DNA of 64,000 nucleotides from a virus (taxonomy: Duplodnaviria > Caudoviricetes). Under the pieces are notes generated by a model. It made no database searches, was not told where the DNA came from, and saw nothing but the letters and a program-made list of their open reading frames with translations. Shown in pieces: positions 907 to 9,834 of this stretch. The translations under genes and the position numbers were made by a program. The stretch's first letter is position 1, and each line of letters starts with the position of its first letter. The DNA is taken from IMG/VR virus record IMGVR_UViG_3300023235_001725; one strand, written 5' to 3'.

Positions 907-1731
907 TTAATTTCTTATATATGTGTTTACAAATCTTTTAACTCCCCCAGGCTTCATATTCAAAGCTTCGCAAGCTTGTTTCACCCAACCTCTTTTATTA
1001 AAATCAATATGAGACATGAGGTTTTTTCTTTTATTAACTTCTTCCTGTGAGAGCTTAAATTTGTTTTTAAACCCATCTTTCATCTTTCTACCTTTTACCC
1101 ACCCTTGACTAAAGAAATCTTCAATAGTCTGTTTGTTAACTTTTTTAGAATCAACTCCATTATTAATCCAGCAAGTATTAAATTGAGAATTAGATTTACC
1201 AATTCCTTTTCCTTTCTTTACTATTCTCAACTTTTTAATTGTCTCAGGTGTATGCTCTTTTCCTGACCAATCATAATGGTCTTGAATGTTTGGTATTCTT
1301 CCCTCTTTGTAGGCTTTTTTTAATCCTTTTAACCTAGCTTCCTCCCATTTCTTTTTAAACTTCGGGTTTTCATCTGCTTTTTTCTTAGCTGCTTTAGCAG
1401 CACAAATAGACCTATGCCTCTGATGCTCATCACTGATAAATCCCCCTCTGCCTCCTGGCATTAGATTCATACAGTCATTCTTAGCAATTTCCTCCAATGT
1501 CACGACCTCTTTTTCCTTATCAATCAACTCCTTTCGAGAATTGCAAAACTCAAGTATCTCTCTGGAGTGACATTCAGCTCCATGCTTATTGACAGAACGT
1601 CGAAGACGCTTACCTGAACCCAGGTATCCATCTTCAACTACATCGGTGGAATGCATCCCAATATAATATCTACCCGTTAGGGTATTAGTGGTTTTGTAGA
1701 TGTAATGAAACTTCTTTTCTTTTCTAGGCAT
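907..1731 (-). CDS. Free-standing GIY-YIG homing endonuclease with NUMOD3-like DNA-binding motif
   Basis: N-terminal YIYKTTNTLTGRYYIGMH and HTPETIKKLRIVKKGK; sits between tRNA genes like T4 SegB. Confidence 0.85.
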   Translation of the reverse strand: MPRKEKKFHYIYKTTNTLTGRYYIGMHSTDVVEDGYLGSGKRLRRSVNKHGAECHSREILEFCNSRKELIDKEKEVVTLEEIAKNDCMNLMPGGRGGFISDEHQRHRSICAAKAAKKKADENPKFKKKWEEARLKGLKKAYKEGRIPNIQDHYDWSGKEHTPETIKKLRIVKKGKGIGKSNSQFNTCWINNGVDSKKVNKQTIEDFFSQGWVKGRKMKDGFKNKFKLSQEEVNKRKNLMSHIDFNKRGWVKQACEALNMKPGGVKRFVNTYIRN

Positions 1732-2084: not shown

Positions 2085-2116
2085 ATAAAAACCCAACATG
2101 TCAAAGAACTGTATTG

Positions 2117-2358: not shown

Positions 2359-2461
2359 TGTTTTTGTTCTTTACCTTCAAGTTTTATTTCTCAGGGACGA
2401 GAAGGAATTAGTTGTCAATATATAGTTGGGAAAAATATTTTCTCGTTCTATAATTGAGACG

Positions 2462-2469
2462 CAAAGATA
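2462..2469 (-). promoter_or_regulatory. Bacteroidota sigma-A -7 box (TATCTTTG) for the leader/tRNA operon
   Basis: Matches TAnnTTTG about 100 nt upstream of the leader ATG. Confidence 0.55.
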
Positions 2470-2560
2470 TACAATAAGTTGCATCTATTCCAAGTTTTTA
2501 TGTAAATATTTAAAAATTATTTTACAATTTACTGATTTTTAGTGTATTGTGAAATAGTAG

Positions 2561-4704
2561 TAAATTATTCCTTTACAGGATGAGGTGATAAACAGGGGTA
2601 TGATGTCAAACCAAGAAGTGCAAAATGTTGTGATTCCCTTACAGGATGAGATGATAAACAGGGGAGGGAGCAACTTCAAATACCTACAAGCTGTTGTGAT
2701 TCCCTTGCAGAATGAGATGATAAACAGGTCTAACGATGGAATAACCACCTTAGGCGAAGTTGTGATTCCCTTGCAGAATGAGATGATAAACAGGTTTAAA
2801 AGTTGAATGCGCCCCGTGCATCCCGTTGTGATTCCCTTGCAGAATGAGATGATAAACAGGTGAGCATTATTCTCTAAACAAAATTTATCTCGAATAAATT
2901 TCAGCCTATTTCAGATTAAACAACAACAATGGAAAATGAAATCGACCGTCTAAATTATCTTTTAACAGCTGTAAACACAGAGAACACATTGAAAGGGCTT
3001 GCACTTGCTGAAATCACCAAAATCTGCTGTCAAAAGTCAAAGAATTTCAGAGATATAAAGCAAATCGAAGACATCCTTCTTAAACTAAAAAATAATCAGC
3101 AGAAATTCCGTTTTAAACAGGAGATAAAATATTTCAAACAGATGGCAGGTAGTTGTGATTCCCTTGCAGAATGAGATGATAAACAGGCGGATTACGATTA
3201 GCCACAGCACCCAACAGTTGTGATTCCCTTGCAGAATGAGATGATAAACAGGCACAGCCAAATAAAGAATTACCAAGATGGTGTTGTGATTCCCTTGCAG
3301 AATGAGATGATAAACAGGTACCAAAACAGAAACATATTTGCTTGCCATGTTGTGATTCCCTTGCAGAATGAGATGATAAACAGGAGGGAATTGATACATC
3401 AGAAAGCCTTTATGTTGTGATTCCCTTGCAGAATGAGATGATAAACAGGGGCAATCGCCTTGAATAATTTTGCTGTTCAGTTGTGATTCCCTTGCAGAAT
3501 GAGATGATAAACAGGAGACTATAATGAATACCGATTTGAGGAAGAGTTGTGATTCCCTTGCAGAATGAGATGATAAACAAGGCAAAGGTCGGGAGCTTGC
3601 AAGCAGATATAGTTGTGATTCCCTTGCAGAATGAGATGATAAACAGGACAAAGGATAAGAAGGGCGTGTAGCTATTAGTTGTGATTCCCTTGCAGAATGA
3701 GATGATAAACAGGCAAAGCAACATCGAATGGAAGCAAGAGAGTAGTTGTGATTCCCTTGCAGAATGAGATGATAAACAGGTTCACCTTCGTTTCGAGGTG
3801 GTTTTTGTCTGTTGTGATTCCCTTGCAGAATGAGATGATAAACAGGGAAGCTTTTGGAACTAATTCCGCTAATCGAGTTGTGATTCCCTTGCAGAATGAG
3901 ATGATAAACAGGGGAATCGAATTCCTTTAGTACGTTCCTTTTGTTGTGATTCCCTTGCAGAATGAGATGATAAACAGGTAGATTAAATCTTAGTCTTCAA
4001 GACCAATCGTTGTGATTCCCTTGCAGAATGAGATGATAAACAGGGACGGTATGCATTCAAAATATCATTGCGCTGTTGTGATTCCCTTGCAGAATGAGAT
4101 GATAAACAGGTAGATTAAATCTTAGTCTTCAAGACCAATCGTTGTGATTCCCTTGCAGAATGAGATGATAAACAGGGACGGTATGCATTCAAAATATCAT
4201 TACGCTGTTGTGATTCCCTTGCAGAATGAGATGATAAACAGGCTACTTCAACTTGACCCAAAAAGACATACAGTTGTGATTCCCTTGCAGAATGAGATGA
4301 TAAACAGGTGCAGTCCAATTCATGATAAACGCATTAAAGTTGTGATTCCCTTGCAGAATGAGATGATAAACAGGTCAATTTCATGTTGGGTGCTGTGACT
4401 AAAGGTTGTGATTCCCTTGCAGAATGAGATGATAAACAGGTTTATTTAAACAATGCAAAAAACAAACCAAGTTGTGATTCCCTTGCAGAATGAGATGATA
4501 AACAGGTGGACCACTCAACCCAAATAACCCGCGCATGTTGTGATTCCCTTGCAGAATGAGATGATAAACAGGTGCACAAAGCTTTAATTATCAAAGGTTC
4601 ACGTTGTGATTCCCTTGCAGAATGAGATGATAAACAGGTGTTTGAAGTTGGCGAACTTGATTCTAAGAGTTGTGATTCCCTTGCAGAATGAGATGATAAA
4701 CAGG
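2561..4704 (-). CRISPR. CRISPR array: 29 repeats of 36 nt (plus strand GTTGTGATTCCCTTGCAGAATGAGATGATAAACAGG), 27 spacers of 29-31 nt and one 291-nt interruption
   Basis: Repeats counted by hand from 2561 (degenerate) to 4669-4704. Variants at 2627 and 3546. The leftmost repeat has lost only its minus-strand 3' end, which suggests minus-strand transcription co-directional with the cas genes. Confidence 0.98.
2929..3174 (+). CDS. 81-aa ORF inside the CRISPR array, antisense to it, ending at a TGA in repeat 6
   Basis: ORF track; A-rich start context (attaaacaacaacaATG); no family recognised. Confidence 0.4.
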   Translation: MENEIDRLNYLLTAVNTENTLKGLALAEITKICCQKSKNFRDIKQIEDILLKLKNNQQKFRFKQEIKYFKQMAGSCDSLAE

Positions 4705-4790
4705 GTACCTGTGGCTAATGCGCTAATAAACAAGCAACAACCACATGTACTGGATGGAAAAAAGACGTCAAAGAGCGCTTGCACAAGGAG

Positions 4791-5507
4791 TCAGATGTAG
4801 AGTTTTGAGTTTGTAATCTCCATAACCATTCCAAACCCTATTCCTGTAGATTGTCCCAAACCATAGTCGTGAATAGCTTGAGCAATCTTTTTGTTGCAAT
4901 GTACAACAACGCTGCATACATTTGCTTTGTTCACACTGGTTTTACTTGGGGCTCCAGAAGAACTCATCAAAATATCTCTAACCTTATTGTGGTTTGATTT
5001 CTGAACTTCAATTCTAAAGCCGTCAAATTTTAAAGTGTTGTCAATGTTTGACAAACGTCTTTTTGTTTGTTCAGACAACTCCTCTTCAAACCCATCATCA
5101 TTTAGGGTGTGAAATTCATAACGGCCTCCATTTTTTTTCTTTAGCAAAATGCCAGTTTCAGTGGTTTTAAAAACAGTAAAACCATCATACAAGTCTTCTT
5201 GGATGAACTCAATGCCCGTCAGTTTCATTCCAAATCCAAAATCTTTATTTGCTCCTGCTCCTGCGAGAAGTTTATTTAAAAAGCTCTCGTCTCCAGAGGA
5301 TATAAACAAACTGCCTCCATGAGCGTACTCAATGGATGTTCCGCCTTCTGTAATCGTTCCTCCAATCATCCTAGAGATAACATAGTTAGAAGGTTGATTG
5401 TGATAGAGATTATCTTTTCCTAAGCATTTATGAATGTAACTCACAACGTGCTTAAGGTTATTTGGAACCAACTCCTTTGCGGAGCTAAATTTTAACTGTA
5501 TTCTCAT
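4791..5507 (-). CDS. cas6: CRISPR-associated endoribonuclease Cas6
   Basis: C-terminal glycine-rich loop YGLGQSTGIGFG; adjacent to the array; ATGA-coupled to the upstream gene. Confidence 0.88.
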   Translation of the reverse strand: MRIQLKFSSAKELVPNNLKHVVSYIHKCLGKDNLYHNQPSNYVISRMIGGTITEGGTSIEYAHGGSLFISSGDESFLNKLLAGAGANKDFGFGMKLTGIEFIQEDLYDGFTVFKTTETGILLKKKNGGRYEFHTLNDDGFEEELSEQTKRRLSNIDNTLKFDGFRIEVQKSNHNKVRDILMSSSGAPSKTSVNKANVCSVVVHCNKKIAQAIHDYGLGQSTGIGFGMVMEITNSKLYI

Positions 5508-6385
5508 GACTCTATTGTAAGTTTAGTGGATATATCTCCTACTCTATCATAACCCTCAATGCTTAGCCTGTTTCCCGATACCACTCTTTCAATCCAAACC
5601 AAGCCTCCATCCAATATAGTTGCCACACCAGCTGAGTTTTCAAGGACTTCTTTGTCTTCTTCATCAAGCGGCACAATAAGGGTTCCGCTCAAGCGAATCG
5701 TTTTATCTATGCCATTGGGAACAACCAGCATAAGTCCTTTTGCGATAGAGTCCTTAGCCATCTCCATAGGGTCGTTTTTATCAGTAGGAGTCTTATTTCT
5801 CAGCCAGTTAACGACACCCGTTTTTCCAACTTTACGTTCTCTAAAATGAGAGAGCAAAGCTTGTTTAGAGGCTGAGTTTAAAGATTGCTTAAAAATATCA
5901 GGCACATCTTCTACTGGAACTTTTCTAATATTTGAGTGGCCCGTTGCCTCTATGAGCATTGTGATGAAATCACCATAATGCTCTTTTAGGTAGGCTTCAA
6001 TCAAATCCCAAGTGAGGTTTGTTATTTTGGCGTTTGAGTTCCAAAAAGCTTTCCTTGTGCGGCATATCTCTTTAATTTCTCGAACATCCCCTTTTTTAGT
6101 AACCCAAGTGGGCACTTCAATCTTTAGGAAGCTGTTTTTTGCCTTCTCAATCAATCTATCCTGCTTCTGATAGACACAGGCCCCAAAAAAAGGGACTGGT
6201 CTTTCATTAAAAAGCACGTGCAAGACATTTGAAATCTGATGATGTGTTAAGTAGGACTCAAATTGAGGGAGCCCCTTTCGAATCTCACCTGCGTCTTTAT
6301 TTCCAAGAAACAATTTATCTTTCGTGTCTTTATGGTTACGAAACAAAACTGCATCTTTAAACTTCAAAACCATAAATTCTTTCAT
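5504..6385 (-). CDS. cas5: Cas5-like subunit resembling Cas5fv (type I-F2)
   Basis: Lies between cas7 and cas6. C-terminal RLSGTLIVPL...ENSAGVATILDGGLVWI resembles the Cas5fv C-terminus as I recall it. At 293 aa it is large for a Cas5. Confidence 0.65.
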   Translation of the reverse strand: MKEFMVLKFKDAVLFRNHKDTKDKLFLGNKDAGEIRKGLPQFESYLTHHQISNVLHVLFNERPVPFFGACVYQKQDRLIEKAKNSFLKIEVPTWVTKKGDVREIKEICRTRKAFWNSNAKITNLTWDLIEAYLKEHYGDFITMLIEATGHSNIRKVPVEDVPDIFKQSLNSASKQALLSHFRERKVGKTGVVNWLRNKTPTDKNDPMEMAKDSIAKGLMLVVPNGIDKTIRLSGTLIVPLDEEDKEVLENSAGVATILDGGLVWIERVVSGNRLSIEGYDRVGDISTKLTIES

Positions 6386-7464
6386 GCTGGGGTGGTTTCG
6401 GTTTTCTTTACTTTCTCTGCTTTTTGCTTTGCGGCTTTGGCTTTCTTTTCCACGCTATTCTTTTTTAAAGTTGCTCGTTCTTCTTCCGCGTACTTCTTTA
6501 ATTCTTCATGAAGTTTTTTTGCATCTCCAGTAACATCTTCCGTATATGCTTCAAACACTTCATACTGCAGAGCTTGAATATTTTCTATTGAATTGATTTC
6601 GACCCAACCCTCTTCGCTGTTAAACCTGTCAATCAAAGGATTGGAAACCAGTTTCACCATCAGCTTCTCTTTGCGTGCATAAGCACTGCTTCGACTGATG
6701 TCCAACGTAAGAAGCTTTTCTAAAAATACAGAAACTAATAAACGAACCTGGTCATCTGTGAATTTGAATCCACGCTCAGCAATGTTTACAGAACTTCCTC
6801 TCATTTGGAAAAATCCAAGCTCATTATCAAATGAGCCAAAGTGAATGTCGGCGTACTTTTTGAATAAATCAAAATGGTCGGGATTAAAACCATAACGTCC
6901 CATGATTTCGTCACAAGAGTAAAACTGAAGCTCTTTCAGGTTTATAGCACCTTGAGATGAATACTTAATCTTCCCAATTGTTTCTTTTTTGTAGATAGAA
7001 TTATCACTTTTTTCTTCGTCTGCTTCATAGCTGATTTTCTCACCAGACTTTGAATGGAATTCGAGACGCGAAAGAGCATCGCACGTTTGTTCGGCAGCTA
7101 CTAGTGTAATGGCTCCTTTTCTTTTTAACGTATCGTTTTTAATGGCATGCAAGTGCCCATTAAGAATGCTTTCTGGATGGGCAAGGTTTGCATAAAGTAA
7201 ATCTTTATTGTGTGTAAGCTTTGGTGTTTGAGACACTTTATCATACATCGCATGCTTCATGCAGGTAGGCGAAATAACTAATTTGTAACGAGGCTCTTTT
7301 CCATCGTTGTAAATGTTTCTCTTTGCATACATTACGTTGCTATGGTATGATTTTAAGAAAGGGAATTTTTCTCCAATATGGAACCGTTGCTCATTGCTAT
7401 CGTAATTAACAACGCCATTGCCTTCAATTTCAATTTTAAAAAGAATTGACTTTACTTTGCTCAT
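6382..7464 (-). CDS. cas7: Cas7 backbone subunit resembling Cas7fv (type I-F2)
   Basis: KSILFKIEIEGNGVVNY, LVISPTCMKHAMY, SIYKKETIGKIKYSSQGAINLKELQF and FTDDQVRLLV...LDISRSSAY parallel Cas7fv blocks recalled from memory. Confidence 0.8.
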   Translation of the reverse strand: MSKVKSILFKIEIEGNGVVNYDSNEQRFHIGEKFPFLKSYHSNVMYAKRNIYNDGKEPRYKLVISPTCMKHAMYDKVSQTPKLTHNKDLLYANLAHPESILNGHLHAIKNDTLKRKGAITLVAAEQTCDALSRLEFHSKSGEKISYEADEEKSDNSIYKKETIGKIKYSSQGAINLKELQFYSCDEIMGRYGFNPDHFDLFKKYADIHFGSFDNELGFFQMRGSSVNIAERGFKFTDDQVRLLVSVFLEKLLTLDISRSSAYARKEKLMVKLVSNPLIDRFNSEEGWVEINSIENIQALQYEVFEAYTEDVTGDAKKLHEELKKYAEEERATLKKNSVEKKAKAAKQKAEKVKKTETTPA

Positions 7465-7506
7465 GGTAATCTGTTTAAAGGTTAATATGTAATTTCTATG
7501 AATTGT

Positions 7507-9834
7507 TTACTCGTAAATTGGCTGGTCAAACTCTTCCAGTAAAGTTTTTTTAATATATCCGTAAATGTCATGATATTCCATATCCATCCTCGGATACGGC
7601 ATTGATTTGTATTTCGCCATTATACGCAATAATTCAAGATTTGTGCTATGCTTTGGAACTTTTAAAAATCTAGTGTAATCAAAAGCGCAATCTGGCTCAT
7701 CGTTAAGATGTTTAATTATCTTAAATACTTTTGCTAGTGCGTTGGAGTCTTCATGGAAGTCTTCGGGTATAGAATCATAAATAGGAGTTGATTTAGGCTG
7801 TGTCCATTCTTTTTTTGCCCATTTTTTAGCAGTAAAAAAGATTTCATTTCCTTTGCTTCTATAGCTAGTTTCTTGTATTTTATGGACTTCCGAGTTTTCA
7901 CTTTTAATCGTTAACCTATTAGGATAAATTTTCTCATGTAAATCCATGCGGCTTTGTCGATATTTTGTGTTTAACCAGATTCTTCTTAAGGCTTCATTTT
8001 CTTTACAATGTTTATTATACAAAGAATATAGGTTATCTAAAGTTGTTTCCCCTTGACTTTGTGTTAGAAAATTAAACCATAAGTCAGACAGTTCTCGTGA
8101 GTACATTGTTTCGCGGGCTCTATTCTCACTTCGTCCAGAATTATCTGAAGGGATTCGATATGTTAGAATTTCAGACTGGTCATCATAATCTCCCCACCTG
8201 TCGACACGGCCTACTCTTTGAAGAGTAGCTTCTGGAGACAGGCAACTTTCAATCAAATGCCTAAAAGAAACATCTAAAGATGCCTGTGCTATTGGGCTCG
8301 CTATTACGTGTTCTTTTTCAATATTTCTGTCGGATTGCTTTCCATAGTTTTGAAGAATAACGCTTAATCGCGCTTGATTGTCGTCGTCCTCAAATTTTCC
8401 ATGAAACAAAATAGTATCTTCATTGTGTTTGTGCTTATTTCTTTGACACTCAACTATAGAATTAGAGATAAAAAGAACAGGGCTTTTTTTACTTTCAGAT
8501 ATTCTAGAACGCCCCTCTTTTGTAGTGAGTTTGTATGATTTATTGTGGACAGCAGGAGCATGTTCAAATTTTCCAGGCAAATGGGCTGTTGAGTTGTCAA
8601 ATGAATCCCAATAAACTGATAAATCAAGTGGGGTTGCGGACAGCAGTAAAGAGCGTCCGTTTGTCATCTGATGTCTTACCTTCATTAGATTTATAAAACC
8701 AGCCAGTAAAGCCCCGTCCGACACTAGCTCATGATACTCATCAAATACAACATCTGCATCGGATACCATTAATAAATCAATATCGTTACAATGCTCTTTT
8801 GTCGGACGTAAAAAGTTATCTACGTTGGTTACAATGATATCGCTTGAAAACTTTATTCCTAAATCTGAATTTGAGGCCTGTTGTTTTCCAGCGTAATATA
8901 ATTCTACTGAAGTTTCAATTCCTGCATTTTTAAGCTCTCTTAAGATGTTGTGGTACACTGATTGTGCCACAGCATTTCTTGGACACACCCAAATAAGCCG
9001 TTTATTGTTGACAGTGCTCCAAAGTAAACCTAGAAGTGTTTTTCCGTATCCAGCAGGGGCGTTGATTTGAACAGTCTTAAACGAGGTCGTCCTAGATGCT
9101 AAAGCAACTTGTTGTGTCCATCTTTTTTCATGTCCAGGATATGGGCATTTAGTAAAAGCGTAACGGTGTTGTTGAATCAGTCGTTCATTTATAGTTTTTT
9201 TAATTTCATCAACTGTAAAATCTCCTAATTCACTAACTAAGTGGTCAGCTCTTACCACGCACATGCGAATAATCGTGTTGTCAACGTTGAGGTCGCTCGT
9301 CTCGTTAAAATCTCTAATATAGTAATGAGGGCTTGATGTTTCAGCTATTCTTGGCCTATCAAGGACTTGGCCAGGAAATAATTCTTCGACGAATTCAATC
9401 ATTCTATCGATAGAATTATCTTTCTTCTTCCGAACCCACTCAAGAATAGACGCATCTGTGTGCTTGCCCATTACATTGTTAATGCCGTGATGCCAGTATA
9501 CTGCTTCAGCAACTTGTCTTAGCTCCTCTGAGTCAAAGCTGATGTACATTCTTACAAATGCCCATCCCACTTCATTGTGCGAAAAAATAATGTCTTTTTT
9601 CTTTGTTTTAGTGGATTTACCATTTAAAGAGTTTCGGAGTAAAGTTTGAAACTCGGTTTCGGCTTTTCCAATATCATGAAGAAGCGCCGCTTTGCGGATA
9701 ACTGATATAAAATGTTTTTTTTCTGTATCTGAGGTAACTATAACTGAGTCGGCAATATATTCCGCAACCTCAGCAACCTTTCGACTGTGCTCAATCAGGG
9801 TTTCGCCAGTACTTTTTGCTAATAACTCATCCAT
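7507..9834 (-). CDS. cas3: Cas3 HD nuclease-helicase, stand-alone (no Cas2 fusion)
   Basis: HD domain (LIEH, LHDIGK, WHHG, ADH) plus SF2 motifs APAGYGKT, DEYH, SATP and QRVGRVDR. Confidence 0.93.
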   Translation of the reverse strand: MDELLAKSTGETLIEHSRKVAEVAEYIADSVIVTSDTEKKHFISVIRKAALLHDIGKAETEFQTLLRNSLNGKSTKTKKKDIIFSHNEVGWAFVRMYISFDSEELRQVAEAVYWHHGINNVMGKHTDASILEWVRKKKDNSIDRMIEFVEELFPGQVLDRPRIAETSSPHYYIRDFNETSDLNVDNTIIRMCVVRADHLVSELGDFTVDEIKKTINERLIQQHRYAFTKCPYPGHEKRWTQQVALASRTTSFKTVQINAPAGYGKTLLGLLWSTVNNKRLIWVCPRNAVAQSVYHNILRELKNAGIETSVELYYAGKQQASNSDLGIKFSSDIIVTNVDNFLRPTKEHCNDIDLLMVSDADVVFDEYHELVSDGALLAGFINLMKVRHQMTNGRSLLLSATPLDLSVYWDSFDNSTAHLPGKFEHAPAVHNKSYKLTTKEGRSRISESKKSPVLFISNSIVECQRNKHKHNEDTILFHGKFEDDDNQARLSVILQNYGKQSDRNIEKEHVIASPIAQASLDVSFRHLIESCLSPEATLQRVGRVDRWGDYDDQSEILTYRIPSDNSGRSENRARETMYSRELSDLWFNFLTQSQGETTLDNLYSLYNKHCKENEALRRIWLNTKYRQSRMDLHEKIYPNRLTIKSENSEVHKIQETSYRSKGNEIFFTAKKWAKKEWTQPKSTPIYDSIPEDFHEDSNALAKVFKIIKHLNDEPDCAFDYTRFLKVPKHSTNLELLRIMAKYKSMPYPRMDMEYHDIYGYIKKTLLEEFDQPIYE

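Follow-up and report, generated by a model that had tools for sequence, protein, structure and literature searches.

The CRISPR array of a large uncultured salt-lake phage is interrupted by 253 nt of non-repeat DNA, one edge of which is marked by an 8-nt fragment of the repeat. The reading that we somewhat favour, on the strength of the junction sequences, is that a single DNA rearrangement joined the 253 nt to the array exactly at a spacer-repeat boundary, leaving a scar that is tolerated and in which an 81-codon open reading frame, ORF81, would be a by-product. Two routes to such a junction can be envisaged: an insertion that duplicated 8 bp where spacer and repeat meet, or a join or deletion, mediated by microhomology, that brought a repeat together with native DNA lying upstream of a second array. 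Either would have produced the present arrangement, in which an 8-nt repeat stub follows spacer 24, with a main array of 24 repeats on one side of the interruption and an old, distal mini-array of five repeats on the other.

The stretch of DNA analysed here (the window, 64,000 nt in full, from a genome of 447 kb) encodes nearly all of its genes on the minus strand. Matches to PHROGs in the window include ribonucleotide reductase, helicases and primase, and tRNA genes are also present. The cas operon comprises genes for Cas3, a Cas7fv-like protein, a Cas5-like protein and Cas6, in that order (Table 1); the large subunit (Cas8) is absent from it, the Cas6 is of the general Cas6 type, and a search with Pfam and NCBIfam profiles found neither cas1 nor cas2 in or adjoining the operon. 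Beyond the array, between tRNA clusters and about 830 nt from the array's old end, lies a gene for a free-standing GIY-YIG (SegE-like) homing endonuclease (907–1731, minus strand), which might give rise to double-strand breaks and rearrangements nearby.

The array starts 86 bases past cas6 and runs from position 4704 down to 2561. It consists of 29 copies of the 36-nt repeat GTTGTGATTCCCTTGCAGAATGAGATGATAAACAGG, separated by spacers of 29–31 nt save for one gap of 291 nt. The true terminal repeat, at 2561–2596, keeps 27 of the 36 positions, and the repeat RNA is unstructured on either strand. Within the main array, a block of two spacers with their repeats occurs twice in tandem (3943–4074 and 4075–4206) with one base difference; L001 has only the G variant of this unit and lacks the two-unit duplication, and in L005 the A variant alone is present. 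Either the duplication exists in the phage, or two strain variants were assembled in tandem. Numbered from the leader, spacers 5 (4375–4404) and 23 (3188–3216) have the 14-mer TGTTGGGTGCTGTG in common as reverse complements, with base differences nearby; they seem to derive from opposite strands of one target region, and the overlap suggests that one rival locus, or two variants of it, has been sampled repeatedly.

Table 1. Coordinates of the cas operon, the two parts of the array and the features of the interruption
Feature	Position	Strand	Description
Cas3	7507–9834	-	cas operon; Pfam/NCBIfam profiles
Cas7fv-like protein	6382–7464	-	weak match, 48.6 bits against a cut-off of 200
293-aa protein in Cas5 position (Cas5-like)	5504–6385	-	placed by operon position
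cas6	4791–5507	-	last gene of the cas3 / cas7fv-like / cas5-like / cas6 operon; Pfam PF01881, TIGR01877; relatives have the same gene order
Main-array leader	4705–4790	-	family-conserved box TCTTTGAC at 4767–4774; box and similar flanks common to the leaders of L006, L007, L017, L036 and L041
Main array, 24 repeats and 23 regular spacers	3152–4704	-	all repeats perfect save one with a single change (3546–3581)
Spacer 24	3122–3151	-	30 nt, in phase; intact repeat on the 5' side only, as transcribed
Repeat stub	3114–3121	-	8 nt, CCTGTTTA as transcribed, the first 8 nt of the repeat; 8/8 identical, in phase
Unique insert	2861–3113		253 nt, 32% GC, plus strand A-rich; resembles neither the repeat nor other parts of the window nor related loci
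ORF81 (P0001)	2929–3174	+	61 codons from unique DNA, about 20 from stub, spacer 24 and repeat
Leader-box copy TTCTTTGAC	3036–3044	- (array strand)	175 nt upstream of the distal mini-array
11-nt direct duplication TAAACAGG(T/A)GA	2853–2863 (left), 3114–3124 (right)		10/11 identical, 261 nt apart, family D3
Distal mini-array, 5 repeats and 4 spacers	2561–2860	-	last two repeats as transcribed (2627, 2561) with 2 and 9 changes

The direction in which the array is read was approached through relatives of Cas6 (26–73% identity, with L006 and L007/L033 at 69–73%), retrieved together with flanking DNA from ENA/Logan, IMG/VR and JGI. Where the retrieved loci reach past cas6, an array of the same 36 + 30 format in most cases follows that gene on the same strand, about 70–180 nt downstream. 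The 20 distinct repeat consensi of the relatives are freely variable in their first half and all end in GGAATCACAAC or a close variant, with a mean information of 0.84 bits at positions 1–18 against 1.81 bits in the last eight; these figures are partly circular, as the GGAATCACAAC motif anchored the extraction, and an unanchored k-mer view shows the same ends. Changes in the relatives' repeats accumulate with distance from cas6. The position of the array after cas6, the shared 3' GGAATCACAAC and the decay away from cas6 together indicate a minus-strand reading of the window's array. Judged from Cas6 processing in type I systems, its crRNAs probably carry the 8-nt 5' handle AUCACAAC. Where repeats of relatives decay, the 3' end GGAATCACAAC is kept and the 5' part is lost. 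The clearest case is L010, a 362-kb IMG/VR phage in which positions 7100–8700 hold a long eroding array with irregular gaps and many half-repeats that consist only of GGAATCA(C/A)AA(C); the arrays of this phage family evidently decay and rearrange extensively.

The interruption itself was first noticed in a sequence-only reading of the window, which described a gap of 291 nt (2861–3151) in place of 30, and this is confirmed between the repeats at 2825–2860 and 3152–3187. The same reading took 3086–3121 for a cryptic, in-phase repeat, and here only the edge holds. TAAACAGG, the 8 nt with which the plus-strand repeat ends, is indeed found at 3114–3121, exactly 30 nt before the next repeat, whereas the other 28 positions are at chance: 3086–3113 matches the repeat at 7 of 28 positions, which is the mean of random 28-mers drawn from the insert, and the GCAGAA pointed out in this segment is shifted and not significant. 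The 8-mer TAAACAGG occurs once in 124 kb of non-array sequence (both strands counted), so that an in-phase copy would arise by chance with p ~2e-5. The repeat-derived part is an 8-nt stub only, and its edge is abrupt. As transcribed, the order is an intact repeat, spacer 24, CCTGTTTA, 253 unique nucleotides and an intact repeat that again starts with CCTGTTTA. The repeats on either side of the gap are perfect, and decay is seen only at the far end of the array.

These features bear directly on the question of whether the interruption arose by slow decay, either of a terminal repeat of the main array or of four repeat-spacer units. The length would be about right, since 30 + 4 x 66 = 294 is near 291, and relatives such as L010 do possess long arrays in decay, in which gaps measure some 96 nt or more. 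Identity, however, is 8/8 in the stub and falls in a single step to chance, the repeats next to the gap carry no changes, and aligning the repeat locally to the insert as a whole detects no relics of hidden, decayed repeats (p = 0.34 against shuffles). Moreover, the 3' GGAATCACAAC that the decaying repeats of relatives keep is missing, and the stub preserves the variable 5' end instead. Slow decay is thus largely refuted, and we regard it as very improbable. Of an earlier suggestion, two fused arrays with a decayed terminal repeat, the second part is not supported; fusion as such is compatible with the data and gains some weight from a leader-type box in the insert that is described below. The retention of only the variable 5' end, together with perfect repeats on both sides, points to a one-off join rather than to erosion, and the sharp break with its 10/11-nt direct duplication argues for insertion or illegitimate recombination.

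Among the three origins put forward in the sequence-only reading, the recombination of foreign or other DNA at repeat microhomology therefore fits best, given the sharp junction (8/8, then 7/28) and the direct duplication. The third, an oversized captured fragment, lacks the full flanking repeat expected from normal integration; the insert is bounded on one side by an 8-nt stub and is 253 nt long, against 29–31 nt for the regular spacers. The insert is flanked by a duplication of the target-site type (8 nt exact, 10/11 in all). Terminal inverted repeats were not found, the only inverted matches being subterminal and weak (11–14 nt, 79–82%), and blastn and tblastn comparisons returned no further copy of the insert in the window or in 40 related loci; nor does the insert carry a transposase. 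Lacking terminal inverted repeats, a second copy and a transposase, the insertion route is left without a known agent.

One agent that might be proposed is an aberrant integrase-type capture, performed by host or co-infecting Cas1-Cas2 or by a transposase with an 8-bp stagger, in which 8 bp were duplicated rather than the 36-bp repeat. During spacer integration Cas1-Cas2 attack the spacer-repeat boundary, and the insert has one of its ends precisely where spacer 24 meets the repeat; the geometry spacer - repeat(1–8) - insert - repeat(1–36) is also that produced by staggered cuts 8 bp apart. Against this, the cas operon of the window has no cas1 or cas2, 253 bp is far above the normal length of a prespacer, the insert has neither inverted terminal repeats nor further copies, and microhomology explains the pattern equally well, so that we consider such a capture unlikely.

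A BLAST search for the source of 2861–3121, the check that had been proposed for this segment, gave no match in the window or the 40 related loci. A phage collection yielded no match to positions 2400–5000, which include the insert, to the cas operon, or to the array at a looser E-value. The exact repeat pattern had zero matches in IMG/VR and in GTDB genomes, 24-nt pieces of spacers 23, 24 and 25 had zero exact matches in IMG/VR, and the stub with the adjoining 24 nt of spacer 24 had zero exact matches in JGI metagenome contigs; neither an empty site nor a protospacer was recovered from IMG/VR, from the JGI contigs or by comparison of the whole array with the phage collection. As these searches turned up neither an ancestral empty site nor a donor, and neither an intermediate relative nor a more distant one with or without the insert, the direction and the mechanism of the rearrangement are read from one junction, at which the two routes are inseparable.

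Short-read assemblies often break or mis-join CRISPR arrays, and the two-unit spacer duplication of the window (3943–4206) is missing in L001, both of which would be in keeping with an interruption created by misassembly or in a chimeric contig. The same 291 nt and flanks recur, however, where different ENA samples were assembled independently with MEGAHIT, and again in a separate JGI assembly. At least 24 ENA contigs carry the identical 291 nt, five assemblies from different samples are letter-identical and have the same neighbouring spacers, and the exact sequence of ORF81 is recorded on 28 contigs. At the level of assemblies, this recurrence rules out the artefact that had been named beforehand as a possible refutation, and we give it practically no credence. 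In the JGI contig (L031; 154 kb, from another study) the flanks are 99.9% identical and the interruption is identical, and comparison of its positions 7065–8171 with 2561–4790 of the window shows that its leader is followed directly by the window's spacer 18, the 17 leader-proximal spacers being absent. Either 17 spacers were gained at the leader end without cas1 or cas2 in the locus, or they were lost by a repeat-to-repeat deletion. Since the interruption is present in this shorter array as well, it belongs to the old portion that the arrays have in common, and it is fixed among the phages sampled.

The array strand of the insert contains a sequence that may bear on its origin. A box of the form (g)(t/c)TCTTTGA(C/T)(g/a)t is common to the leaders of the window and of the five relatives named in Table 1, mostly about 60–95 nt before the first repeat. 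The copy in the insert, TTCTTTGAC, is farther from its array, at 175 nt from the mini-array, and lacks the flanking consensus bases of the true leaders. The 8-mer TCTTTGAC has 10 copies in 128 kb (both strands of the window) against 4 expected, which gives a chance of about 2% of finding one in the stretch and on the strand of the insert. The insert and the true leader also have TTGTTG(C)TTGTTTA in common (p = 0.08), and the overall alignment of the insert to the leaders of relatives or to the array trailer is not significant. As a leader would be, the insert is AT-rich (32% GC) and is located immediately upstream of the repeat at 2825–2860 on the minus strand. On the basis of the family box on its array strand, the insert may serve, or may have originated, as a second leader of the old distal mini-array. 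Scans for sigma-70 promoters and terminators produced nothing convincing, with no terminator-like site on the minus strand of the insert; the lack of Shine-Dalgarno sites suggests that the host is probably without sigma-70-type promoters. A box close to that of the family's leaders, gtTCTTTGACatg, is found at 2100–2108 (minus strand) within the tRNA region, and the leader-type box might serve RNA genes of the phage as a promoter or regulatory element.

On the opposite strand, the sequence-only reading had pointed to an 81-aa open reading frame at 2929–3174 that uses a TGA inside the repeat as its stop, and both the frame and the stop are as described. Because the array is read on the minus strand, ORF81 would be antisense to the pre-crRNA, again as that reading had it, although the orientation is borrowed from the arrays of relatives. 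ORF81 could be a real small phage gene, located between two arrays and transcribed against them, whose product is perhaps a regulator or an anti-defence protein; its mRNA might then pair with the pre-crRNA and affect the processing of the distal spacers. It is the sole open frame of the six, its start context, A-rich and without a Shine-Dalgarno site, resembles that of the window's genes, and the A-rich plus strand of the insert (AT skew +0.22) is typical of the coding strands of this phage. The codon score, 0.14 per codon compared with 0.22 +/- 0.06 for 81-codon pieces of real genes, is at the 6th percentile and inside the real-gene range, and is far above that of other frames, being matched by no shifted frames and by 0.3% of antisense frames.

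Null models conditioned on an open frame weigh against a gene, as 7–10% of open non-coding stretches or real shadow frames reach the codon score of ORF81 (p = 0.07–0.10), and on these sequence statistics its codon usage appears weakly gene-like. A first-order model of the insert's composition produces an open stretch of at least 62 codons in 19% of cases, so that the open frame is not surprising from composition alone. Stub, spacer and repeat contribute about 20 codons at the end of the frame as well as its stop, gene callers also call plainly spurious ORFs in this array, and no relative has an ORF at this place. Homologues were not found in any library searched: HMMER against 1.84 billion representative proteins and a word-indexed search of a 5.8-billion-cluster index each returned only ORF81 itself, and there was no match in Pfam, NCBIfam, PDB or PHROGs (best PHROGs E = 0.07). 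The AlphaFold2 model has four helices at low confidence (pLDDT 57; 0.59 for the ESM model), and the ESM Atlas offered only generic helical look-alikes. All available copies of ORF81 are identical. A real gene is, on this evidence, a possibility that we hold to be rather doubtful; most likely ORF81 is a by-product of the A-rich strand of the insert, or what remains of the 5' end of a gene since lost, joined by accident to codons of the spacer and repeat.

If the interruption is a tolerated scar, as we favour, its consequences for the guides of the array can be sketched by analogy with type I systems. Transcription would proceed from the leader near cas6 through the main array on the minus strand, and Cas6 would cleave every repeat 8 nt short of its end. 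Spacer 24 would thereby receive a correct 5' handle with no Cas6 site after it, and its RNA would extend for about 327 nt (8 + 30 + 8 + 253 + 28) to the next intact repeat, which is not a standard crRNA; such an RNA would presumably be either trimmed or unproductive. The four distal spacers would be made only through read-through of the insert or through initiation inside it. The minus-strand RNA of the insert has no unusual fold (z = +1.24), the insert matches no Rfam family above noise, and none of the 28 spacers has a seed run of at least 10 nt, or a match of at least 20/30, to 2861–3121. That only the oldest spacers are affected is probably why the scar is tolerated.

Alternatively, the interruption could be functional, with ORF81 as a true antisense gene whose transcript and the pre-crRNA control each other, or with the RNA of about 327 nt serving as a giant guide for the Cas8-less, Cas7fv-like backbone. 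In the related type I-Fv system the Cas7fv backbone adapts to the length of the crRNA (PMC4937334), which by analogy makes a giant guide conceivable. We nevertheless judge a functional interruption improbable, and the split array is a well-documented structural scar of modest interest unless ORF81 or a giant guide is made. Were ORF81 real, it would represent a rare instance of a gene lying antisense within an active array. The locus shows that the arrays of huge phages without spacer-capture genes of their own change by recombination, duplication, deletion and scars, and not only by addition at the leader; it also constitutes a natural test of how a minimal, Cas8-less type I system deals with a guide that has no downstream Cas6 site.

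CRISPR arrays split by inserted DNA have been described, including cases caused by IS elements and by transposons that target repeats (e.g., PMC11837452). The present array resembles these in having non-repeat DNA within a regular array, a short direct duplication at the junction and correct phase on both sides, and differs from them in the lack of a transposase, inverted terminal repeats or a second copy, the interrupting DNA being 253 nt that match no known element. The stub also recalls the degenerate terminal repeats found at the leader-distal end of arrays, as it is in phase, 30 nt past the last intact repeat and on the leader-distal side of the main array; unlike such repeats, it keeps only 8 nt, ends abruptly and retains the variable 5' end rather than the conserved 3' handle. 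With respect to the effector, the closest parallel is the minimal I-Fv (I-F2) Cascade of Shewanella putrefaciens CN-32, in which the number of Cas7fv subunits follows the length of the crRNA (PMC4937334). The two share Cas3, a Cas7fv or Cas7fv-like protein, a Cas5-like protein, Cas6 and the lack of any large subunit, and they differ in that here the Cas7fv match is weak (48.6 bits against 200), the Cas6 is of the general type, repeats and spacers measure 36 and 30 nt, and the locus is phage-borne, with no cas1 or cas2-3; assembly on a 291-nt guide would be hypothetical. The combination of a partial repeat and a spacer-like segment beside a small ORF in a CRISPR-cas locus is reminiscent of CreTA and other repeat-like regulatory RNAs (bioRxiv 10.1101/2023.03.03.530964). 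A CreTA-like circuit was considered and rejected, as the insert and the region around the start of ORF81 contain no seed match to any spacer and the stub is only 8 nt long. Precedents exist for interrupted or split arrays, for truncated terminal repeats and for internal leaders; the present case differs in three respects, namely the clean 8-nt stub, the lack of any recognisable mobile element and the setting, a Cas8-less type I locus that is carried by a phage and has no adaptation genes.
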